IMG/VR virus record: IMGVR_UViG_3300039344_000030
Span: 1 to 48,380 of that record
Origin: a virus
DNA length: 48,380 nt
Strand: one strand, 5' to 3'
Positions 4,360 to 30,218 of this stretch are shown here, piece by piece. Both the position numbers and the translations under genes were made by a program. The notes under the pieces are model-generated. The model saw only the letters and a list, made by a program, of their open reading frames with translations. It had not been told where the DNA came from and made no database searches. Position 1 is the first letter of the stretch. Each line of letters begins with the position of its first letter.

Positions 4360-5316
4360 ATGACGAGAGAATATGGAGGGAAAGAACTAGCAAAAGTGCT
4401 TATCTATTATGGATTGATTGCAGATGTTGTAAGTTCTGATTTTAACATCATTTGTCCTTTCCATGAGGATATAAACCCTTCCATGAGGGTGTGCCTAACA
4501 GATGGTTCTTTCTTCTGTTTTGGATGTGAAGCAAAGGGAAATGCCCTAGACTTTGTGAGGAAGGTACATCCAGAATTAAATGAGTTACAAGCGTGTGTTT
4601 TGTTGGAACAAATATTGAACAGTGATGAAGTGAAAAAGTTAAATGTGAAGTATAAGAAGAAAAGAAGATTGCAGAACAAGCAAGCCTTGAATGAAGCACA
4701 TGACTATTATTACGGATTACGAACTGTTGATTGGAATGACATACACACAAAAGAAGAACATGAAGTTTTACAGTATATGAAACAAAGGGGATTTGATGAA
4801 AGAGCATTGAACATTGCACATTGTAAAACAAATTATAATATTGCTTATCCGTTTTTGTTCCCAATATTAGACAATGGGGAGTTCAAAGGATGGGTTGGCA
4901 GAACTATGAACAAGTATGTTGAAAAAAAGCGCAAGTATTTATACAATGATGGTTTTAGAAAGCGAGATACATTGTGCGGAACATATGAACAAAACAAAGT
5001 GGTGTTTGTTTGCGAGGGGTTCATGGACTACCTTAGTTTGAGGACAAGAGGACACATCAAGAATGTTGTTGCTATTTTGGGGTGGCACATATCAGACGAA
5101 CAAGTACAAAAGTTGAAGGATAAAGGAGTAACAACGGTTGTGTCTGCTCTGGATAATGACAAAGCAGGAAATAAGGGTACAGAGTATTTAAAACGGTTTT
5201 TCCATGTGATAAGGTTTGATTATCCAGAAGGAGTAAAGGACGCAGGTGAAATGTCGGAACAAGAGTTAAAAATGGCAATCAGACGGACAAGGAGGGCTTA
5301 TAAACGTGACAGTTAG
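4360..5316 (+). CDS. DnaG-type DNA primase (CHC2 zinc finger plus Toprim)
   Basis: CPFHEDINPSMRV...FFCFGCEAKGNALDFV zinc finger. Toprim-like VFVCEGFMD...SALDNDKAGNKG. Confidence 0.8.
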   Translation: MTREYGGKELAKVLIYYGLIADVVSSDFNIICPFHEDINPSMRVCLTDGSFFCFGCEAKGNALDFVRKVHPELNELQACVLLEQILNSDEVKKLNVKYKKKRRLQNKQALNEAHDYYYGLRTVDWNDIHTKEEHEVLQYMKQRGFDERALNIAHCKTNYNIAYPFLFPILDNGEFKGWVGRTMNKYVEKKRKYLYNDGFRKRDTLCGTYEQNKVVFVCEGFMDYLSLRTRGHIKNVVAILGWHISDEQVQKLKDKGVTTVVSALDNDKAGNKGTEYLKRFFHVIRFDYPEGVKDAGEMSEQELKMAIRRTRRAYKRDS

Positions 5317-5689
5317 TTTTAAGTTGAAGATGGGAATGACGCTGTTCCATGCACAGACCATGAAGGAATTACGGATTGACAAGGTGATAGAACAGAGTTA
5401 TAATGAAGATAGTCAAGAATACAAAGAGTTGTGCAAGGAATATACACAAGTGATAGGATTTGCAAGAGAACTTGACAAAATAGAGTTTGACAAAGAATTG
5501 ATGAAGGAACTAGCAAGAGAGGCGAAGGAAGTACAGAAAGAAACAATTGAACAGATTGAACAGGTTGTAAAGAATTGCTACTATCAAGGAACAACAGCGT
5601 ACATATCTTTTGGTGGGTATATGATTAACCCAAAAGAGTTTTGTGCAATTCGTCTGGATGGGTTCGACATTCAATTCAACAAAAAGTAA
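5306..5689 (+). CDS. Hypothetical protein
   Basis: GTG start 9 nt after AAGGAGGG. Overlaps the primase end by 11 nt. Confidence 0.55.
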   Translation: MTVSFKLKMGMTLFHAQTMKELRIDKVIEQSYNEDSQEYKELCKEYTQVIGFARELDKIEFDKELMKELAREAKEVQKETIEQIEQVVKNCYYQGTTAYISFGGYMINPKEFCAIRLDGFDIQFNKK

Positions 5690-6547: not shown

Positions 6548-6565
6548 AACAAACAAGAACAATTA

Positions 6566-6599
6566 GGGGTTGACAAAATGTCAGCCCTTTTGTTATAAT
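6566..6599 (+). promoter_or_regulatory. Overlapping terminator hairpin and promoter
   Basis: GGGGTTGACA-AAA-TGTCAGCCC + TTTT. The 5' arm holds the -35 TTGACA (6570) and TATAAT is at 6594. Confidence 0.65.
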
Positions 6600-11653: not shown

Positions 11654-11662
11654 TTTATTTTA

Positions 11663-11695
11663 GGGGTTGACTTTGTTCAACCCTTTTGTTATAAT
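11663..11695 (+). promoter_or_regulatory. Overlapping terminator hairpin and promoter
   Basis: GGGTTGA-CTTTGT-TCAACCC + TTTT. The -35 TTGACT (11667) is in the 5' arm. TATAAT at 11690, then AGAATC. Confidence 0.65.
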
Positions 11696-21087: not shown

Positions 21088-21462
21088 TTGAAAACAGACG
21101 ACATCATCATGTTAGATTGCAAGAAGGAAGGAAACAGAGAGTTAATAAACAAGTTCCTTTGGAAAGTAAAACCATGTGCTAAGATTCTGGAAAAGAACCA
21201 TTACACAAGAACAGAGATAGCACCGATTGAATTATTGGAACAGGTGTTGCATGGATTGTGTGAACGATACCCATATAAATTACAACAGATATGGACATAC
21301 AGCGAAGAAAAGAAATTCAAGTTTTACCACATGGGCGTAATTCATGTTACAGATACTTATGAGTGGTTAGGAGATGTGAATGGCGTAACATTGTGGGAAG
21401 TTGTTGCAAAGGCAATTATCAAGATTTATGCGGATTTGAAGAAGGAGAAAACAGAACAATGA
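21088..21462 (+). CDS. Hypothetical protein
   Basis: TTG start after GGAGGA, 124 aa. Confidence 0.5.
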   Translation: MKTDDIIMLDCKKEGNRELINKFLWKVKPCAKILEKNHYTRTEIAPIELLEQVLHGLCERYPYKLQQIWTYSEEKKFKFYHMGVIHVTDTYEWLGDVNGVTLWEVVAKAIIKIYADLKKEKTEQ

Positions 21463-21926
21463 AACAAATAACATTCTATACAGATGGTGCTTGCAGTGGA
21501 AACCCCGGCGAGGGTGGTTGGGCATATGTAGAAGTCATTCCATGTAGTAATGGAATAAAAACAAATGTGGTAACAGGAAACAAGAAACAGACGACAAACA
21601 ATGAGATGGAACTGACAGCAGTGTATATGGCGTTAGTAAAAGCCTTGAAGAACAAAACAAAACAGGTCACAGTATATTGCGACAGTGCTTATGTTGTGAA
21701 CGCTATTACAAAAGGGTGGTTACAGAACTGGCATAACAATGGTTGGGTAACGAAAGAAGGAAAACCTATAAAAAACAAACATATATGGGAAAAGATGTAT
21801 TTGCTTGTATATGAAAAGAAGATGAACATAACAATGGTAAAGGTCAAAGGACACAAGGGCGACCCCTTAAATGAACTTGCAGACAAAAGTGCAGTAGAAG
21901 CAAAACAAAGAATCATGGAGGGGTAA
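21459..21926 (+). CDS. rnhA: Ribonuclease HI
   Basis: MKQITFYTDGACSGNPGEGGWAYV...NNEMELTAV...DSAYV...GHKGDPLNELADKSA. ATGA overlap with the upstream gene. The track start 21363 is an artefactual extension. Confidence 0.85.
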   Translation: MKQITFYTDGACSGNPGEGGWAYVEVIPCSNGIKTNVVTGNKKQTTNNEMELTAVYMALVKALKNKTKQVTVYCDSAYVVNAITKGWLQNWHNNGWVTKEGKPIKNKHIWEKMYLLVYEKKMNITMVKVKGHKGDPLNELADKSAVEAKQRIMEG

Positions 21927-22712: not shown

Positions 22713-22877
22713 ATGAGTTATGCACCATGCAAGGGATGTGGAAGAAGGACAGTAAAATGCCATGCAGAATGTGAGGAATACAGAAAGTTCCAAGAAGAAA
22801 ATGAGAGGATAAAGGGAAACAGGAAGAAGGACACCATCAGCCGTTCTACCATATTCAGAGCAAATTATCATAGTTAA
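22713..22877 (+). CDS. Small Cys-rich protein (54 aa)
   Basis: MSYAPCKGCGRRTVKCHAECEEYRKF.... Weak SD. Below the track cutoff. Confidence 0.45.
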   Translation: MSYAPCKGCGRRTVKCHAECEEYRKFQEENERIKGNRKKDTISRSTIFRANYHS

Positions 22878-22880
22878 GTG

Positions 22881-22915
22881 TTGACAATCCAAACAAACTC
22901 TGTTATAATAGAATC
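22881..22915 (+). promoter_or_regulatory. Consensus sigma-A promoter driving the non-coding unit
   Basis: TTGACA-17-(TGt)TATAAT then AGAATC. Confidence 0.75.
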
Positions 22916-23195
22916 AAAAGAAGGAGTTGTGCTTGGATTGGCACAAGTAAGTGGTAGCCTTAAATGGAAATGCCTACCAATAAAATAAATTATCACGTTG
23001 CCGCTGTGGTAGCCATATATTAGTCGTGGTACAAGAAAATGTGTAAGTATATCCGTTTGACGTAACCGAGAAACGTCATGTAACTTGTAAACATATTGAT
23101 TCATAAACTAAATATTGTGATTGATTCAAGCGGCAACGTGATTCACCATATAGAGACAGTAACAGACAAGGGCAACCTTGTCTTGTTGTGTATTT
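22916..23195 (+). ncRNA. Candidate structured ncRNA or cis-regulatory leader of about 280 nt, unclassified
   Basis: No SD-preceded ORF. Hairpins at 22927-46 and 22952-79. A 14-bp long-range helix 22992-23005/23129-23142 encloses nested helices. Terminator-like hairpin 23164-23183 with a U-rich tail. Confidence 0.5.
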
Positions 23196-23235
23196 AGAGA
23201 ACAAATAATAAAACAAAAGGAGGATAAAACAGAAC

Positions 23236-23751
23236 ATGGGAAGAAGGAAAGGAAGAGAGGTAAAAGAAGCAAGTGAGAATCTAATACCACTGAATGAGAG
23301 AACACCAGAAGAACGAAAACGGATAGCAATGATGGGAGTTGAAGCAAGGAAGAAGAAGAAGGAACAAAACATGGCGTTACAGAATTGTATGCGTCAGTTG
23401 TTGGAGATGAAAACAAACAGCGATAAAAAGAAACAGGTGTTGCGCTCTTTTGGGTTCACAGATGAAGAACTTACGAACCGTTCTTTGTTGATGGTTGCAT
23501 TGTTCCAGAAGGGATTGACAGGAGATGTTTCTGCAATCAGAGAAATTACAGACATGATGGATAAACTAGAAATGTTTGAAAACACAGGAAAGGTTACAAG
23601 CAATATCACAATCAATCTTGTTGCAAAAGGGGAAACATATCAGCCGAATGAACAGGACGAACAAGACATATGGGATGCAGAGAACAGTACAGACTGGATG
23701 GAGGACAGCGAGGACGATGAAGATTGGGGCAATGACATCTATGAAGGATAG
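23236..23751 (+). CDS. Putative small-terminase-like DNA-binding protein
   Basis: Basic N-terminus NLIPLNERTPEERKRIAMMGVEARKKKK, central ...ALFQKGLTGDVSAIREITDMMD, acidic tail. SD AAAGGAGG. Assignment rests on resemblance only. Confidence 0.4.
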   Translation: MGRRKGREVKEASENLIPLNERTPEERKRIAMMGVEARKKKKEQNMALQNCMRQLLEMKTNSDKKKQVLRSFGFTDEELTNRSLLMVALFQKGLTGDVSAIREITDMMDKLEMFENTGKVTSNITINLVAKGETYQPNEQDEQDIWDAENSTDWMEDSEDDEDWGNDIYEG

Positions 23752-23965
23752 CGGCAGGAAAGCGTCTGCTGTGAATATTCTGGAAGATAATAACCCAACC
23801 CTTAGAAGTATTCACCTTGAAGAAGAAAGCGGCTTAAAATCGAAAATAGAAGGTTACAGAAGGTTGTCTGCTATGGAGTGGATAACAGAACATACAGAAC
23901 AAGATGAATTATTTTGCAAGAACATATTGACAAACATATTGGAACATGATATAATTCAAGTATAA
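23741..23965 (+). CDS. Small hypothetical protein
   Basis: In-frame ATGs at 23732 and 23741. Weak SD, start uncertain. Confidence 0.4.
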   Translation: MKDSGRKASAVNILEDNNPTLRSIHLEEESGLKSKIEGYRRLSAMEWITEHTEQDELFCKNILTNILEHDIIQV

Positions 23966-23978
23966 AAGGAGTTAGAAC

Positions 23979-24389
23979 ATGAGTAGAGCAGAAATCAGAA
24001 GGGAACAAAGAGAGAAGAAGAAAGAAAACAAAACATATACCTTGACAGCAAGGGAGTTGGAACAGTTAGAACAAAGAATCAGAAGGGAAGAACAGAAAAA
24101 GGCAAAACAGGTGATTCTGGATAAGACAAATGCTTTAGCAGAACAAATACTAACAATGATGCTGGTAATTCCAACAAATGTGTTGGTGTCTGATTATTGG
24201 CAGAAGTCAGCAAAGAAGCGCATACCAAAGTTTGTAGATGATTGTATGAGCCTATATGAAGCATTTACAAGCGGTGTGGTGAAGATGTCCGAAATGGTAG
24301 CACTGACAGAAGAATATGCAGGAATCAAGTTAGTGCAGGATGAACAGTTTTCCATGTTTGCAGAAAAGGTGGGAGAACATGAAAAGTAA
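23979..24389 (+). CDS. Hypothetical protein (basic coiled-coil N-terminus)
   Basis: SD AAAGGAG, 136 aa. Confidence 0.6.
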   Translation: MSRAEIRREQREKKKENKTYTLTARELEQLEQRIRREEQKKAKQVILDKTNALAEQILTMMLVIPTNVLVSDYWQKSAKKRIPKFVDDCMSLYEAFTSGVVKMSEMVALTEEYAGIKLVQDEQFSMFAEKVGEHEK

Positions 24390-24552
24390 ATTACAGAAGG
24401 ACATAGACAGTTATGTAAGAAAGTATGCAAAGAAGTATAACATAACAAAAGAACAAGCACTAACACATGAAAGAGTGCAGAATGTGATTGCATGGTTAAG
24501 GTTAAGGGAAGGAGAACAGGAACATGATAAAACAGAAAGTGGAACAATATGA
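24379..24552 (+). CDS. Small hypothetical protein
   Basis: ATG 24379 after AAGGTGGGAG. Confidence 0.5.
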   Translation: MKSKLQKDIDSYVRKYAKKYNITKEQALTHERVQNVIAWLRLREGEQEHDKTESGTI

Positions 24553-24937
24553 CCTTGATGTGGTTGACTTGGAAAAGGAACTAGAAGCAGAGTTTGAAGC
24601 AGGGTGCAGGGTGGTTAGCATGATTTCTGTTACAGACAGATATGATATGCCAATCAAAGGGTTATCACAGACACATACCGTATATGTTGTATATGAGTAT
24701 GAAGAAACCATAAACTATCCTAAGATGTATTCTATTAGTAGTGGTATTGCATTGCTGAAAAACAAAGATGTGAAGATTTACAGAACATTAATGTTTGAGC
24801 ATGTAAAGGGAAGAAGGGACGAAAACGTATATTATACCTATCTGCCGAATGAAAGAACAAAAGAGTATAAAGACATCATGGAGTATTGTTATTTGAATAA
24901 CATAACATTGTTTGAGGTGAAAGCAAATGGAAACTGA
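24524..24937 (+). CDS. Hypothetical protein
   Basis: SD GAAGGAG, 137 aa. Confidence 0.6.
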   Translation: MIKQKVEQYDLDVVDLEKELEAEFEAGCRVVSMISVTDRYDMPIKGLSQTHTVYVVYEYEETINYPKMYSISSGIALLKNKDVKIYRTLMFEHVKGRRDENVYYTYLPNERTKEYKDIMEYCYLNNITLFEVKANGN

Positions 24938-25253
24938 TGCAGAATTAAAACAAATACAGATAGATAAATACACAAGGAAGCAAGCAGAACAATTCGGGAT
25001 TGAAAACAGATTATTACAGTGTACAGAAGAATGTGGAGAACTCATACAAGCGTTAAGCAAGTATCAGAGAATCTTACAGGGAGATAAAACATGCCAGACA
25101 GATATGTGTCATGCAGAATATATGATAACAGACGAGATTGCAGATGTGGAACTTCTGTTAGAACAAATCAAGTACCTATTAGGAAACGAAAGGGAAGTCA
25201 GAGAAAGGAAACTATATAAATTTGAAAGGACAGAACAAAGATTATTAGAATAG
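24927..25253 (+). CDS. MazG-like all-alpha NTP pyrophosphohydrolase
   Basis: EECGELIQAL and DEIADVELLLEQ acidic motifs in a 108-aa helical protein. Confidence 0.55.
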   Translation: METDAELKQIQIDKYTRKQAEQFGIENRLLQCTEECGELIQALSKYQRILQGDKTCQTDMCHAEYMITDEIADVELLLEQIKYLLGNEREVRERKLYKFERTEQRLLE

Positions 25254-25266
25254 GAGAACAAAATAA

Positions 25267-25584
25267 ATGGCAATTTATAAAAAGAAACCAGTAGAAATAG
25301 AAGCAGTTCAATGGACAGGATTAAACCATAGAGAAATGTTTGATTTTCTAACAAATGGACAATTCCAAGATTGTTATATGACAACATTTGGAGAAAATTT
25401 CTATATTGACCATAACAAAGTCCGTGGAGGTTTAGTTATTAAAACGTTAGAAGGGGAGCATATTGCATCTATTGGCGATTATATCATTAAGGGAGTACAT
25501 GGAGAGTTCTATCCTTGTAAGCCAGATATATTTGAAAAGACATATGAATCAGTAGAACAAAACAGAACAGAACATACCATTTAA
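25267..25584 (+). CDS. Hypothetical protein
   Basis: SD TAGGAG, 105 aa. Confidence 0.6.
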   Translation: MAIYKKKPVEIEAVQWTGLNHREMFDFLTNGQFQDCYMTTFGENFYIDHNKVRGGLVIKTLEGEHIASIGDYIIKGVHGEFYPCKPDIFEKTYESVEQNRTEHTI

Positions 25585-25626
25585 AACAAAGACAGAACAA
25601 AGAATATAGAAAGGGGCATAGAATAC

Positions 25627-26283
25627 ATGGGAACAAAAGCAAGTGGTATTAAGGTAACATACAGAAACATTAGAGAGTTAAAACCATACAAGAAGAACGC
25701 AAAGAAACATCCGAAAGAACAGGTTGAAAGAATTATGAACAGTATTAAGCAGTTTGGGTTCTTTGAACACAGAGCAGTAGCAATTGATAAAGATGATTAT
25801 GTTGTGGAAGGTCATGGAAGAATCCTTGCGGCAAAGAAAGCAGGACTAACACAAGTGCCTACAATCTGTCTGGATGATATGACAGAGGAACAAATCAAGG
25901 CTTGGCGTTTGATTGAAAACAAAACAGCAGAATCAAGTTATGACGAAACATTGATAAGCAAAGAGATTGAAGAATTGTTACAATCAGATATAGACATGGA
26001 AGCATTTGGATTTAGTGTGGATATTCTGGAAGATGAAACAATAGAGGTAGAACCAGATGTACCTTTTACAGAGATACTCAACGAAGAAAACAATTATATT
26101 GTGTTAAAGTTCAACAATAAGATTGATTGGCTCAATGCTATGGGGTTGTTTGGAATCGAGAAAGCAAAAGCATACCCTACAAGGAAAGAAGGAAATAAAA
26201 AGTCATTCGGTATGAGAGCAGGAGTAGGAAGGGTGCTAGATGGACAGAAAGCGTTAGAAAGGGTGCAAGGTAATGAAGTATAA
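25627..26283 (+). CDS. ParB/Srx-like N-terminal domain protein, stand-alone
   Basis: LKPYKKNAKKHPKEQVERIMNSIKQFGF....AIDKDDYVVEGHGRILAAKKAGLTQVP. Confidence 0.7.
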   Translation: MGTKASGIKVTYRNIRELKPYKKNAKKHPKEQVERIMNSIKQFGFFEHRAVAIDKDDYVVEGHGRILAAKKAGLTQVPTICLDDMTEEQIKAWRLIENKTAESSYDETLISKEIEELLQSDIDMEAFGFSVDILEDETIEVEPDVPFTEILNEENNYIVLKFNNKIDWLNAMGLFGIEKAKAYPTRKEGNKKSFGMRAGVGRVLDGQKALERVQGNEV

Positions 26284-27082
26284 GGGAAAAGAAATCATTG
26301 TTGCTTGTCCGTCTTATAAACGGTATAAGGTGGAGACATTAAGTTACATTCCTTTCTGTAAGGTTTATGTTGCGCCAGAAGAATATGAAGCATATTTAGA
26401 GTTCAACCCGAAACATACAGAAAATATTGTGAAGTGTCCGAAGGGTGTACAAGGAAATCTGTGCAGAGTTCGTAACTATATCCTTGACACAGAGTTTGAA
26501 CATGGTGCAGATATTGTTCTGCTGATTGATGATGATTTACGAGCAATCGAACATTTTGAAATGTCAGAGGATGGAACACACGCATACGAAAAAGTCAAGG
26601 TAAAATCAGATGAACTACTAGACTTTATATATAGATATTCTCTATTATGTTATGATTGGGGTTTTCGCTTTTGGGGATTGAATTGTAACAGCGATACAAT
26701 GTCCTATCGGCAGTATTCCCCATTCAGCACTACATCCTATATAGGTGGTCCGTTCCAGTGTTTCTTAAAGGGGAACGAATTAAGGTATGATGAAAGACTT
26801 CCGTTAAAAGAAGATTATGACATGACATTACAGAACATGAATCTGTACAGAGGGGCATTGAGGTTAAACAAATACCATTATGTTTGTAGACAGTCAGAAC
26901 AAAAGGGCGGTTGTGCAATGTACCGTAACATGGAAAGGGAAAAGGAACAGTTTGAGTTGTTGCGTAAGAAGTGGGGCAGTAACATTGTAAGGCTGGACAC
27001 ATCAAACAAAGGAAGGTCAAGAAAGAACAGAAAGTACATTGACTACAATCCGATTATCAAGATACCCATTAAGGGAATCTAA
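26273..27082 (+). CDS. GT-A-fold glycosyltransferase-like protein
   Basis: N-terminal IIVACPSYKR strand motif, DxD motif VLLIDDDL, downstream EDYD. Overlaps the ParB-like gene by 11 nt. Confidence 0.5.
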   Translation: MKYKGKEIIVACPSYKRYKVETLSYIPFCKVYVAPEEYEAYLEFNPKHTENIVKCPKGVQGNLCRVRNYILDTEFEHGADIVLLIDDDLRAIEHFEMSEDGTHAYEKVKVKSDELLDFIYRYSLLCYDWGFRFWGLNCNSDTMSYRQYSPFSTTSYIGGPFQCFLKGNELRYDERLPLKEDYDMTLQNMNLYRGALRLNKYHYVCRQSEQKGGCAMYRNMEREKEQFELLRKKWGSNIVRLDTSNKGRSRKNRKYIDYNPIIKIPIKGI

Positions 27083-27088
27083 GAGGAA

Positions 27089-27118
27089 GGGGCAGAACAT
27101 TGTTTCTGTCCTTTTTAT
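27089..27118 (+). terminator. Rho-independent terminator
   Basis: GGGGCAGAA-loop-TTCTGTCC(T) + TTTTTATTTT. Confidence 0.65.
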
Positions 27119-27146
27119 TTTGTTTGAAAAAGTTTTACAAAACGTA

Positions 27147-27180
27147 TTGACTTTGTGCTATGTTGTGATATAATAGAATC
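27147..27180 (+). promoter_or_regulatory. Sigma-A-type promoter
   Basis: TTGACT-16-TATAAT then AGAATC. Confidence 0.65.
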
Positions 27181-27292
27181 ATCAAAGGAAAGGAAACATG
27201 ATGTTGAGGACGACATGTGGTGCTGGTTCAATAGCCATCCGCTGGAGTACAATCCGATAGAAAGAAAACAAACATAGAAGGAGGACATTACA

Positions 27293-27451
27293 TTGAATGA
27301 CACACAGAGGAATTATGAAACACTGTTAGAAGCAATCAAAACAAATGACATTGGTGCAGAAGAGTTGTTGGACGCATTTACCAATTGGCATGGATTACAG
27401 TTAATTGATGATGATTTCATAGAATTTCTGGAAGATGAAGAAATCATATAA
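27293..27451 (+). CDS. Small acidic protein (52 aa)
   Basis: TTG start after GAAGGAGGA. Peptide NDTQRNYETLLEAIK...DDDFIEFLEDEEII. Confidence 0.45.
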   Translation: MNDTQRNYETLLEAIKTNDIGAEELLDAFTNWHGLQLIDDDFIEFLEDEEII

Positions 27452-27458
27452 AAGCGTG

Positions 27459-27493
27459 TTGACAAGAACAGTACATTGTGTTATGATGGAATC
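27459..27493 (+). promoter_or_regulatory. Sigma-A-type promoter
   Basis: TTGACA-17-TATGAT then GGAATC. Confidence 0.65.
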
Positions 27494-27590
27494 AAGATAA
27501 AGGAAAACAAATAATACTTGGCTGTTGCATTTGAGACTTGCTCTTGTGGGAATGGTTAAGCACTGAACAGGAAATGAAGGAGAATGGAAC

Positions 27591-27833
27591 ATGGCAGATT
27601 ATTTATTGGCAAGTGACAAAGTGGATAGCATGAAGAGAGAAGCGGAACAGAAGTACAAGAAGTACGAAGAACAATTGTTGAAGTATGCAAAGCGTGACCT
27701 TATGAAATATACAGAGGTTATGGCAGAGTGTACAGGGTATCTGAAAGCACTTGCTGATTTGGATTTGTTGGATGATTTTGGTGAATCACTAAACAGAATG
27801 ACAGAACATGTAATTGAAGAACAAAGGAGGTGA
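27591..27833 (+). CDS. Small hypothetical protein
   Basis: SD GAAGGAG, 80 aa. Confidence 0.6.
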   Translation: MADYLLASDKVDSMKREAEQKYKKYEEQLLKYAKRDLMKYTEVMAECTGYLKALADLDLLDDFGESLNRMTEHVIEEQRR

Positions 27834-27837
27834 TACA

Positions 27838-28143
27838 GTGAAGGTGATAGACCTTGAAACAATTGAACCAGAGGAAGTCAGACAGAAGATACAGAATATT
27901 ACAGATACAGTAAGCAGAGAATTGAGAGTGTACAGAGCGAGGGTTCGTGTGGAAGAAGGAGTAACAGAGAACAGATATGTTCTGACATTTCACTTTGAAA
28001 ACAATTACAATTATTCTAGGGTGTTTACCATGAACGAATTGCTTAATGATTTTAGATATTTCCAATGGCAGACAATTGGGAAAGAATTGATACAGGAAAT
28101 AAAGAGACAGTTTCTTGTAGAAAGGCGATTGACATTCCGATAA
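27838..28143 (+). CDS. Hypothetical protein
   Basis: GTG 27838 after AAAGGAGGTGA. Confidence 0.55.
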   Translation: MKVIDLETIEPEEVRQKIQNITDTVSRELRVYRARVRVEEGVTENRYVLTFHFENNYNYSRVFTMNELLNDFRYFQWQTIGKELIQEIKRQFLVERRLTFR

Positions 28144-28197
28144 TGGTGTGTTAATATAAAAGAGTAAACAGAGTAAGTTCAGAAAGGAGAACAAAAC

Positions 28198-28635
28198 ATG
28201 AGTGAGAACAAAGGGAACAAATTAGTTGTGGACGACATTGAGGTTATCGTAAGAGGTATTGCGAACAAACCGTATTATGAGATTAAGTACAGAGAAGTCG
28301 GGAACGATGATTATAACATCGGCTTTGGTTCGTATGATTTAAACAATGTCCTCAAGTGGAAAGAGGAAGAATTTGAGGTTGTTTCCGAGAAAGTGGAGAA
28401 AGAAACAAAGGAAGTAACAAACAAGATGTTGCTAGAACATCTGAAAGAAATCGAGATTGCACATGGTTGTCTTGCAAATGGAATCAACACACTGTTCAGT
28501 GTTATGAGTGAAAGAAAGGAACAGTTAAAGTTAAGCAGGGGCGAAGCGGAAATGATTGAACATGGACAGATTGCACTCGCTTGTCTCACAGACCGCATGG
28601 CTAATATTTCTGGATGGCTAATATTTCTGGAATGA
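28198..28635 (+). CDS. Hypothetical protein, apparently truncated by a 17-bp tandem duplication
   Basis: SD AAAGGAG. The frame ends ...DRMANISGWLIFLE* inside the duplicated unit. Confidence 0.6.
   Translation: MSENKGNKLVVDDIEVIVRGIANKPYYEIKYREVGNDDYNIGFGSYDLNNVLKWKEEEFEVVSEKVEKETKEVTNKMLLEHLKEIEIAHGCLANGINTLFSVMSERKEQLKLSRGEAEMIEHGQIALACLTDRMANISGWLIFLE
28598..28631 (+). repeat. Perfect 17-bp tandem duplication (TGGCTAATATTTCTGGA x2)
   Basis: 28598-28614 equals 28615-28631. Removing one copy extends the ORF in frame to TAA 28728-28730. Confidence 0.95.
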
Positions 28636-28730
28636 ATGAGAGAGGAAAGAGACATGCGGCAGAGGTTCATGTGGTAGGAAAAGAAGATGTTGAAGGTTTC
28701 CTCGATTTTCTGAAAGAAATTTTAAGTTAA
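28632..28730 (+). other. Out-of-frame continuation of the 28198 gene (32 codons). Possibly the orphaned C-terminus, or an independent mini-ORF.
   Basis: Reads MNERGKRHAAEVHVVGKEDVEGFLDFLKEILS*. No convincing SD. Confidence 0.4.
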
Positions 28731-28733
28731 GCC

Positions 28734-28763
28734 TTGACGAACAACAATTGAATATGGTATAAT
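28734..28763 (+). promoter_or_regulatory. Sigma-A-type promoter for terL
   Basis: TTGACG-18-(TGg)TATAAT. Confidence 0.65.
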
Positions 28764-28770
28764 ATGATAA

Positions 28771-28831
28771 ACAAAACAGATAAGGTTCGGCGTACATCAG
28801 ATTATGTACATTTGCCACTTATCTGTTTTGT
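28771..28831 (+). promoter_or_regulatory. 5'-terminal leader stem-loop of the terL mRNA
   Basis: Perfect 14-bp helix ACAAAACAGATAAG / CTTATCTGTTTTGT enclosing a 6-bp hairpin GTACAT/ATGTAC. Begins at about the predicted +1. Confidence 0.6.
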
Positions 28832-28859
28832 GCATATTAAAACAAAGGAGCAAACAAAC

Positions 28860-30218
28860 ATGGATGTGAACATTGAAGTGTCAAACAGATTTGCTTCTTT
28901 TCTAACCGATTGGGATTATGAACAATACCTGTTATTGGGTGGGTATGGTAGCGGAAAGAGTTACCATGTAGCATTGAAGATTATACTAAAACTTCTGGAA
29001 GAAAAACGAACAGCATTGGTGGTAAGACAAGTGCGTGAAACAATCAAAGAATCTTGTTTCGCATTGTTTAAAGAAATCCTTGACAAGATGGGTTTGTTAT
29101 CAGATGAAGCGGTAAGGAACAATCACAGACCAAAAGGGGACAAAGTGGTTGCGATTTCTAGTCCTTTGGAAATCCGTTTTCCGAATGGTTCAAGAATCAT
29201 ATTCCGAGGAATGGATAATACGGAGAAAATTAAGTCCATTCACGGTGTCAGCATTGTTTGGATGGAAGAATGTAGCGAAATCCGTTATGAAGCATATACC
29301 GAGTTGCTAGGGCGTATCAGAGAGCCTAAAGTGACGTTGCATTTTATCTTAACAACAAATCCTGTCGGCAAGGAAAATTGGGTATACAATACTTTTTTTG
29401 TGCATACAGATGATAAAGGAAGAGAGAGAACAATACAAAGTCCAGAAGAGTTTTACAGACGTAGAACATTGGTGAACAAAAAGAATGGTGTTTATTATCA
29501 TCACAGCCTACCAGATGATAACCCATTCCTGCCTGTTTCGTACATTCGCCGTCTGGATGGATTGAAGAGAACAGACAAACAATTGTGGGTTGTTGCAAGG
29601 TGGGGAAGGTTTGGAGCGAATGGAACAAGGGTACTTCCGAACTTTGTTGTTGCGAAGGACAGCAGAGAGTTCAAACGGAAGGTGAACAGTATTTCTGCAC
29701 AATTTCATTTCTTCGGACTTGACTTTGGTTTTGAAGAGAGTTACAATGCGCTTATCAGTTGTTGTGTTGATGATGCAAACAAAGTGCTGTACATTTATGA
29801 TGAAGTGTACATGAATCAGATAACAGATGATAGATTCTCACAGAGACAAGATGTTCGTGCAGTAGCGGAGAGGGCAGGAAGGTGTGAGAAGCCAATCTGT
29901 GCAGATTCAGCAGAACCTAAAACAATTCAGTTTTACAGACAGCAAGGGTACAACATGTATGGAGCGAAAAAGTACATTGGAAGTCGTTTACAGAACACAA
30001 AGAAGATGAAACGATTTAACAAGATAGTTTGTTCCCCTAGATGTAAGAACACAATCCGAGAGTTGAAAGACCTTACATATAAGAGGGATTCAAGGGGTAA
30101 TGCAATCTATGATGAATTTAACATTGACCCGCATACATTTTCTGCATTGTGGTATGCGTTGGACACATATACCGTTGCAGATGTGAAGGAGATTAAAACA
30201 AACAGTAAAGCAGGATAA
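28860..30218 (+). CDS. terL: Terminase large subunit
   Basis: Walker A LLLGGYGSGKS, Walker B-like VWMEEC, C-terminal nuclease region. ATG 28860 after AAAGGAG. The track start 28764 lies in the -10 box. Confidence 0.85.
   Translation: MDVNIEVSNRFASFLTDWDYEQYLLLGGYGSGKSYHVALKIILKLLEEKRTALVVRQVRETIKESCFALFKEILDKMGLLSDEAVRNNHRPKGDKVVAISSPLEIRFPNGSRIIFRGMDNTEKIKSIHGVSIVWMEECSEIRYEAYTELLGRIREPKVTLHFILTTNPVGKENWVYNTFFVHTDDKGRERTIQSPEEFYRRRTLVNKKNGVYYHHSLPDDNPFLPVSYIRRLDGLKRTDKQLWVVARWGRFGANGTRVLPNFVVAKDSREFKRKVNSISAQFHFFGLDFGFEESYNALISCCVDDANKVLYIYDEVYMNQITDDRFSQRQDVRAVAERAGRCEKPICADSAEPKTIQFYRQQGYNMYGAKKYIGSRLQNTKKMKRFNKIVCSPRCKNTIRELKDLTYKRDSRGNAIYDEFNIDPHTFSALWYALDTYTVADVKEIKTNSKAG

Follow-up and report, generated by a model that had tools for sequence, protein, structure and literature searches.

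Between positions 22881 and 23235 of the virus record IMGVR_UViG_3300039344_000030 (IMG/VR; 48,380 nt, analyzed over its full length and referred to as the window), a consensus promoter and a terminator-like hairpin enclose the longest stretch free of open reading frames (ORFs) and together delimit a discrete unit, located immediately upstream of a gene for a TerS-like protein. Comparison with the homologous regions of related phages provided good support for the conclusion that this unit encodes a new, lineage-specific family of structured RNA, which precedes the TerS-like gene and is not represented in Rfam. As to its function, the sequence comparisons suggest, with a probability that we put at about one half, that the region is a cis-acting transcription-attenuation leader RNA of the terS-like gene, and the most likely task of the RNA is to control the timing of packaging-protein production. 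An initial annotation of the window had described a structured RNA that could not be matched to any family, and both the empty Rfam scans and the strong covariation reported below bear this out.

Architecture and conservation of the leader RNA

In the window, the unit and the gene behind it comprise the following elements (SD, Shine-Dalgarno sequence; aa, amino acids).

22881-22909, + strand: sigma-70 consensus promoter (12/12 match), with TTGACA at 22881, a 17-nt spacer containing an extended TG, and TATAAT at 22904
22921-22926, + strand: purine-rich AAGGAG, an SD-like GGA element that abuts P1 (GGAG, GGAA, GGUG, or AGAG across all lineages)
22927-22946, + strand: hairpin P1, with the stem TTGTGCT/GGCACAA and the loop TGGATT, GGAU being at 22935-22938
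22947-22979, + strand: linker GUAAGU and weak hairpin P2, recognized by covariation and by its match to covariance model R1
22992-23005, + strand: 5' arm ATCACGTTGCCGCT of a long-range 14-bp helix that closes a 123-nt domain
23006-23032, + strand: second copy of GTGGTAGCC (23006-14) within hairpin P4 (23008-16 with 23026-32), recognized from the fold and from pairing within the window lineage
23058-23078, + strand: inner hairpin P5, TGACGT/ACGTCA (23058-63/23073-78)
23129-23142, + strand: 3' arm AGCGGCAACGTGAT of the long-range 14-bp helix, pairing with 22992-23005
23156-23195, + strand: terminator-like hairpin with the core AGACAAGG-GCAA-CCTTGTCT (23164-83) in a stem that can be extended, followed by the U-rich tail TGTTGTGTATTT
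23217-23751, + strand: SD AAGGAGGA (23217-24) and the gene for the 171-aa TerS-like protein gp171 (23236-23751), a phrog_2412 match

Searches of IMG/VR and public assemblies for homologs of the downstream protein, motif scans, and Dulem virus 36 (lemur faeces) together supplied approximately 50 distinct homologous leaders. All of them belonged to a single lineage of 45- to 52-kb gut phages related to the Clostridium phages CS266P1-4, to which the window is 97 to 98% identical and whose host is Clostridium_AP sp000509125 DA266; a search for literature on the CS266P phages found nothing. The leader-bearing phages share the gene order RNase H, two or three small genes, leader, and a gene of 160 to 190 aa. 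Although their terS-like proteins ranged from 44 to 99% in identity, the layout of the leader was constant, over a length span of 127 to 442 nt.

The common plan begins with the consensus promoter and, after ~10 nt, the purine-rich AGGAG, P1, a linker (R)UAAGUG, and the weak hairpin P2. An A-rich spacer then leads to either one or two domains with interiors of 35 to ~250 nt, the closing helices of which (10 to 24 bp) are perfect or nearly so, and finally to the hairpin with its U-rich tail, the SD, and the ATG. In the window, P1 and P2 occupy 22927-22979, ~10 nt past the predicted transcription start, and no start codon was found at a usable spacing after the SD-like element (22921-22926). The GGAU of the P1 loop was invariant across the lineages, the sole exception being AGAU in leader L147. 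P2 consists of 4 to 6 bp, with a loop that begins with GCC and ends with AAA(U), and is followed by NRCC. Its family-wide register pairs GGUA (22953-56) with UGCC (22971-74), while a register specific to the window pairs UGGUAG (22952-57) with CUACCA (22974-79). The closing helix measured 12 to 24 bp in every long-leader lineage and 10 bp in the short leaders L031 and L155, and was missing from L033. The longest leader, that of L147 (L147:2562-3003; 442 nt), contained a tandem duplication of ~180 nt that comprised the helix-closed domain and the terminator, and its internal CCAUCCU is a duplicate of the terminator 3' arm.

The + strand RNA of 22911-23200 folded to −79.2 kcal/mol, with a z score of −4.4 against dinucleotide shuffles, versus a z score of −3.5 for the − strand. 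The minimum free energy (MFE) fold included P1, P2, the 14-bp helix, P5, and the GC-rich hairpin at 23164-83. Thus, most of the helices that had been read from the sequence initially (22927-32/22941-46, 22952-57/22974-79, 22992-23005/23129-23142, 23058-63/23073-78, and the hairpin 23164-71/23176-83) exist as described. An additional nested helix, 23030-35/23084-89, had to be abandoned: its strands are complementary in the window, but it lies outside the MFE fold, and relatives break it without compensation. Likewise, the duplication of TTGATTCA (23096 and 23121) is real in the window, but is deleted in a sister lineage. Within the window lineage, P4 was paired in 100% of the cells of the alignment, and one of its pairs alternated between U·G and U-A. 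Directly behind the long helix's 5' arm lies a second GUGGUAGCC (23006-14), a potential competitor of P2 for CCUACC; a link between this second copy and the terminator was looked for and not found.

Covariance model R1 was built from 10 sequences and used to realign 28 distinct modules. P1, for which 22 distinct stem sequences were seen among the leaders (e.g., UUGUGC/GCACAA, UUAUAA/UUAUAA, CGGUG/CACCG, AGUCAA/UUGACU, AAUCGU/ACGAUU, AUAGGU/ACCUAU, and AAUCCU/AGGAUU), exhibited compensatory double changes in 7 of its 7 pairs in this alignment. Such changes affected 3 of the 5 pairs of P2, which alternated between GGUA with UACC or UGCC, GACA with UGUC, AACA with UGUU, and GGUG with CACC. Overall, 88% of the cells were paired, compared with 29 to 58% if the partners were slid, and the covariation score was 0.55, compared with 0.21 ± 0.02 for shuffled alignments (0 of 500 reached it) and 0.05 to 0.15 for slid controls. 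The long helix was compared arm by arm; full-length counts from MAFFT were blurred by a 3-column mis-registration of its 5' arm. In sister lineages it extended to 16 to 18 bp around the same GCCGC core and kept four compensated positions (U-A to A-U, G-C to A-U, A-U to G-C, and U-A to C-G), so that the covariation check proposed for the 14-bp helix turned out in its favor. In other lineages, unrelated helices of 12 to 24 bp took its place, equally far from the promoter; that of L118 measured 19 bp, that of L141 20 bp, and that of L150 24 bp. Compensations in P5 were seen even among phages that are 97 to 99% identical (C-G to U-A, G-C to A-U, and A-U to G-C). In all, covariation was strong in four helices: P1, P2, the long helix, and P5.

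The principal helices contained approximately 12 to 16 G·U mismatches versus 1 A·C mismatch on the + strand, as tallied by hand from the listed helices (an automated count was unreliable, as helix picking failed in several lineages). Three independent A-to-G changes in the 5' arm of the terminator gave rise to G·U pairs (L001, L015, and L163), and U·G intermediates were seen in P1. The great excess of G·U over A·C showed that the selected structure is an RNA on the + strand and neither a cruciform formed by DNA nor a duplex binding site.

Nucleotide diversity of the 5' module (22905-23004) among close relatives was 0.009 to 0.018, which is the lowest of any 100 nt within 3 kb and below that of the flanking genes. 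Diversity of the central domain was 0.06 to 0.07, as is ordinary for the genome. A hypervariable or diversifying center was ruled out by this value; the central domain is merely less constrained.

Transcription was predicted to start near 22916, and all relatives had a consensus-like promoter at the same place. Both the promoter and the noncoding character of the region had been recognized correctly at the outset. No other part of the window stays free of + strand ORFs of 45 aa or more for as long as 22878-23235 does (358 nt); the runner-up measures 235 nt. No conserved small coding frame was found on either strand: the longest ORFs of both strands differed in frame and length among relatives of 97 to 99% identity, and the reading frame of the conserved AAGTGGTAGCC / invariant AAGUGGUAGCC sequence differed from lineage to lineage. 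Since neither frame nor length is kept, a small protein encoded in the leader was ruled out for both strands. A promoter-like TTGACG-17-TAACTT at 23056-23087, within the RNA and overlapping P5, is probably spurious. Upstream of the unit, a 54-aa ORF (22713-22877) ends 3 nt before the promoter; its product is Cys-rich (CKGC...CHAEC) and has the look of a zinc ribbon, and no family match was found for it.

At least 13 perfect (12/12) sigma-70 promoters are present on the + strand of the window, distributed over the early and structural regions (3074, 5376, 6570, 10430, 14022, 16812, 17697, 19301, 22881, 23927, 33936, 35363, and 43845). It seems that the phage depends throughout on host polymerase and on promoters of maximal strength, and given their number the promoter at 22881 has no special status: it is an ordinary host-polymerase unit and not a special late promoter. 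Elsewhere in the window, two terminator-like hairpins (6565-6599 and 11662-11695) hold the −35 element of the next promoter (TTGACA/TTGACT) in their stem (AGGGGTTGACA...CCCTT TTGTTATAAT) and constitute compact, overlapping terminator-promoter junctions.

In pattern scans of IMG/VR, GTDB genomes, and JGI/ENA metagenomes, the most conserved motif was not found outside the phage lineage; the remaining matches were rejected as chance occurrences, since they lacked promoter and P1 and were as frequent as expected by chance. Rfam 15 yielded no gathering-score match in the window or in 11 related loci, except tRNAs elsewhere, and permissive scans (E values up to 10 for the region) returned only sub-threshold noise; the Dulem virus leader gave nothing meaningful either. 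No tRNA or tmRNA was found in the window, in agreement with what had been stated before. A second copy of the module was not found in the genome either: R1 gave its best score, 88.5 bits, at 22921-22984, and the runner-up reached 13.8 bits. This runner-up, a weak P1-like copy at 5423-5482 (GAGTTGTGCAAGGAATATACACAAGTGATAGG against GGAGTTGTGCTTGGATTGGCACAAGTAAGTGGTAGCC; E = 0.07), lies 19 nt past the perfect promoter 5376-5404 and within an ORF (5306-5689), and may be due to chance or be a decayed duplicate.

Terminator pairings and a proposed attenuation mechanism

In nearly all leaders, a hairpin followed by a U-rich tail was located 31 to 63 nt before the ATG (53 nt for hairpin 23164-83 of the window). 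Their stems are unrelated, and many lineages have clean U runs. No promoter was found between hairpin and SD. Every terS transcript therefore carries the leader and passes the terminator, which makes an effect in cis unavoidable.

The clearest pairing overlap was observed in two short variants, L031 and L155. Here, the 3' strand of P2 and its tail (UACCUGCCUU) pair with AAGGCAGGUA to form a 10-bp antiterminator helix (duplex energy, −17 kcal/mol; z = −5.3), and AAGGCAGGUA is at the same time the 5' arm of the terminator GGCAGG-loop-CCUGCC-U5. Since the antiterminator thus draws on one strand of P2 and one arm of the terminator, P2, antiterminator, and terminator are mutually exclusive in both leaders. 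In L033, the terminator's own 3' arm is the same P2 strand. Partial complementarity between P2 and the terminator was detected in L145, L141, and L148, as well as in L190 (Dulem virus 36), where it was read from the sequence. As regards a riboswitch, the conserved module overlaps the expression platform only in the short variants, and its two short hairpins are small for an aptamer.

From these features we infer termination at the hairpin and its regulation as follows. Host RNA polymerase would start near 22916 at the consensus promoter and would first make the conserved two-hairpin module, i.e., AGGAG, P1 with its GGAU loop, UAAGUG, and the weak P2. The lineage-specific domain would come next, zipped by the long helix (in the window, 14 bp round 123 nt), before the polymerase meets the intrinsic terminator ~50 nt ahead of the start codon. 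There it would either stop, leaving an RNA of ~270 nt, or read through into terS, with P1-P2 as the likely control element. In the short relatives, the 3' strand of P2 and the 5' arm of the terminator would make up the antiterminator, and a formed or stabilized P2 would favor termination. In the window, the terminator would form by default and be leaky through its poor U tract, and read-through would probably be set by a candidate phage or host factor acting on P1-P2. A bolder version of this scheme, which we think rather unlikely, has P1-P2 as a new RNA control element that would act on the elongating polymerase, either alone, in the manner of the put element of phage HK022 (two adjacent stem-loops in the nascent transcript near the promoter), or by recruiting a protein, and would thereby time terS expression and the onset of packaging.

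Several observations weigh against attenuation, most of them from the window itself. The GC-rich hairpin is present as initially annotated, but the U-rich tail assigned to it (UGUUGUGUAUUU) is a weak one and can be drawn into a longer stem (23156-23191); with a U tract this poor and absorbable, termination in the window may be weak. Complementarity between P2 and the terminator is limited there to 5 bp (UGCCU:GGGCA; −7.6 kcal/mol, z = −2.7), and this pairing is lost in the relatives L022 and L172. The 5' arm of the terminator remained unpaired in the truncated fold of the window lineage, and a contiguous zipper extension of the 14-bp helix was looked for in the window and not found. Since the complementarity is short and lost in relatives, the switch is clear only in the short variants. 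Furthermore, the duplicated domain and terminator of L147 fit a single alternative-structure switch poorly. Finally, all examples come from one syntenic phage lineage, so that their constant link to terS is not independent evidence of cis-regulation.

The closest known relative of the leader is the zipper-type attenuator cATT of pLS20, for which a weak but conserved stem-loop, followed by a long one and by a terminator directly ahead of the first gene, was shown experimentally (PMC13401043; Nucleic Acids Res 2026). The cATT antiterminator is the extended long stem, and a factor that stabilizes the weak hairpin has been proposed (PMC13401043). Both systems have a strong promoter and a long leader in which a stem-loop, a weak and most-conserved stem-loop, a long stem-loop, and a terminator before the SD of the first gene follow each other. 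L031 and L155, moreover, share with it a complementarity between the weak hairpin (3' strand) and the terminator (5' arm), by which the central stem extends into the antiterminator. The proposed pLS20 effector, a protein stabilizing the weak hairpin, likewise corresponds to what is proposed here. However, no sequence similarity was found between the two, and pLS20 is a conjugative plasmid, whereas the phages are gut phages of lytic type. The pLS20 leader precedes conAn1 of the conjugation operon, whereas the phage leader precedes the TerS-like phrog_2412 gene. In addition, the center of the window leader is a 123-nt multi-branch domain with a perfect 14-bp helix, and the 5-bp complementarity of P2 and terminator in the window lineage is neither conserved nor contiguous with that helix. 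With a different downstream gene, no sequence similarity, and weak complementarity in the window, the phage leader is not a member of the plasmid family.

Two further systems invite comparison. In PyrR and TRAP leaders, a 5' hairpin serves as an anti-antiterminator, and stabilization of this hairpin lets the downstream terminator form. The same logic applies to L031 and L155, whereas the binding motif is unrelated and the phage leader has no Rfam match. In the PR'-6S RNA-tR' arrangement of phage lambda, a strong constitutive promoter and a short terminated leader precede the late/packaging genes, and read-through is required; Q acts via the DNA site qut, and 6S RNA has no conserved structured sensor. 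In contrast, the conserved element of the window is an RNA structure, and the late region of the phage has consensus promoters of its own.

Alternative roles of the RNA

Three roles had been offered initially, i.e., a trans-acting noncoding RNA, a cis-acting leader, and a DNA-level packaging region. Of these, the leader gating the downstream gene fits best, while the strand-specific G·U pairs disfavor a pac site.

A stand-alone, trans-acting phage small RNA (sRNA) of ~270 nt seems unlikely to us. In such an RNA, P1-P2 would serve as a handle for protein binding, function or targeting would reside in the helix-closed domain, and terS would be transcribed by incidental read-through only. The gene anatomy (strong promoter, no ORF, terminator) agrees with this, as does the MFE fold of the window lineage, in which all modules and the terminator are present together with no competing antiterminator. 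Two GGA motifs, one in the P1 loop and the other 5' of P1, would also suit an sRNA, since GGA in a hairpin loop combined with a 5' GGA resembles the dual sites of CsrA-type RNA-binding proteins. Binding of a CsrA-type protein at P1 may serve as a lead; it would not explain P2. The RNA is necessarily the leader of terS, however, because that gene has no other promoter. In addition, the short variants have kept module, terminator, and overlapping pairings around an interior of no more than 35 nt, and interior variability is no greater than that of the neighboring DNA.

Processive antitermination would assign P1-P2 a different task, namely to modify RNA polymerase so that it passes the leader terminator and later ones, either alone, as in HK022 put, or with a phage protein, as in lambda nut/N and pLS20 conAn. 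We rate this as distinctly improbable. RNA-based antiterminators are rare but known, i.e., put, EAR, and conAn2 (PMC8191782). As in those elements, P1 and P2 are adjacent conserved stem-loops between promoter and terminator, following right after the promoter. The distance from the hairpins to the terminator varies from ~35 to 330 nt, complementarity to the terminator is often absent, and the L147 leader has two terminator-like hairpins, all of which an antitermination element would accommodate. Yet no sequence or structure match to the known elements was obtained, including in Rfam scans, the module exists in a single copy in the genome, and the phage has no downstream terminator series. The next + strand terminator lies ~3.9 kb further on (27085) and is followed by fresh consensus promoters, so that long-range antitermination is not obviously needed. 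The short variants, moreover, display the classical design of local alternative structures.

It appears very unlikely that the structures primarily serve RNA processing or stability, with the long helix cleaved by an RNase III-type enzyme and with stabilization by the 5' AGGAG and hairpins setting the half-life of terS mRNA. Hairpins of this kind are processing sites in early mRNAs of phages such as T7, lambda (N), and SP82, perfect helices of 12 to 24 bp are kept here whatever their sequence, and an SD-like element is present at the extreme 5' end. Processing would nevertheless leave unexplained the sequence conservation of the GGAU loop and of UAAGUGGUAGCC, the conserved terminator, and the overlap of P2 and terminator pairings in the short variants.

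Least probable of all is a DNA-level pac site or TerS recognition region with GTGGTAGCC and GTGGTAC as protein-binding sites. In its favor, pac sites often lie in or near terS, the region directly precedes the TerS-like gene, and GTGGTAGCC occurs twice within 55 nt. However, stems that covary without sequence conservation, and whose + strand mismatches are of the G·U and not the A·C type, are not what a duplex DNA site would show. The second copy of GTGGTAGCC is also restricted to the window lineage, and GTGGTAGCC at up to one mismatch has 3 matches in the window versus 3.08 expected by chance.

The TerS-like gene, its surroundings, and implications of the leader

Designation of gp171 as TerS-like, already made in the initial annotation, was supported by remote homology, gene position, and a domain fusion. 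In profile searches, gp171 matched only phrog_2412, which PHROGs lists as of unknown function, and had no match in Pfam, NCBIfam, or PDB sequences; its AlphaFold model was unusable (predicted local distance difference test score, 54). Distant homologs were detected by tblastn in the Streptococcus phages EJ-1 (ORF38) and Javan311 and in the Eggerthella phage PMBT5 (gp01), where they lie directly upstream of, or overlap, terL. A profile search returned 980 relatives of gp171, among them P0236, a metagenomic protein of 606 aa in which the phrog_2412 domain is fused to Terminase_6N/6C. It is this adjacency to terL and the fusion in distant homologs that point to a TerS-like function, and the fusion is useful evidence for annotating phrog_2412. 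No homolog of gp171 was found by tblastn in 72,556 plasmids.

The view that the unit stands before a packaging block or late operon could not be maintained. In the window, terL (28764-30218) lies 5.5 kb downstream of the leader, and the distance from the terS-like gene to terL is 3.4 to 5.5 kb across the lineage. The ~5 kb in between (23751-28764) contain nucleotide-metabolism and DNA-modification genes as well as further consensus promoters; a separate 145-aa ORF (28198-28635) abuts terL. Hence, the unit precedes only the TerS-like gene and not a contiguous packaging block. The intervening genes include the following.

24927-25584: MazG-like pyrophosphohydrolases
25627-26283: ParB-like nuclease
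26273-27082: TAGT/beta-glucosyl-HMC glucosyltransferase-like protein

This set of genes hints at DNA hypermodification. In some relatives, one or two tRNA genes were present a few kilobases past the TerS-like gene (L031:6358-6429, L146:6301-6372, L150:5709-5937, and L118:6914-6984). In GenBank, the entries for CS266P1, P2, and P4 label the RNase H gene upstream of the leader (21363-21926) "pro-pol polyprotein," a name that misleads, since the product is a stand-alone RNase HI.

To our knowledge, RNA-level control of terminase expression is barely documented, and we know of very few phage cis-regulatory RNAs outside the lambdoid phages. An attenuation leader of terS would extend the zipper-type attenuator layout from conjugative plasmids to phages, and the natural series of leaders from 127 to 442 nt could reveal how attenuators expand and are rewired. 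If P1-P2 acted on the polymerase itself, it would represent a further class of RNA-based antitermination/attenuation sensors and, among those known, the first with a terminase gene under its control. Since the human-gut Clostridia phages CS266P1-4 and their host DA266 are in culture, these proposals are directly testable. Should the module of GGAU and GUGGUAGCC bind a factor, that factor would reveal how packaging is timed in these phages.

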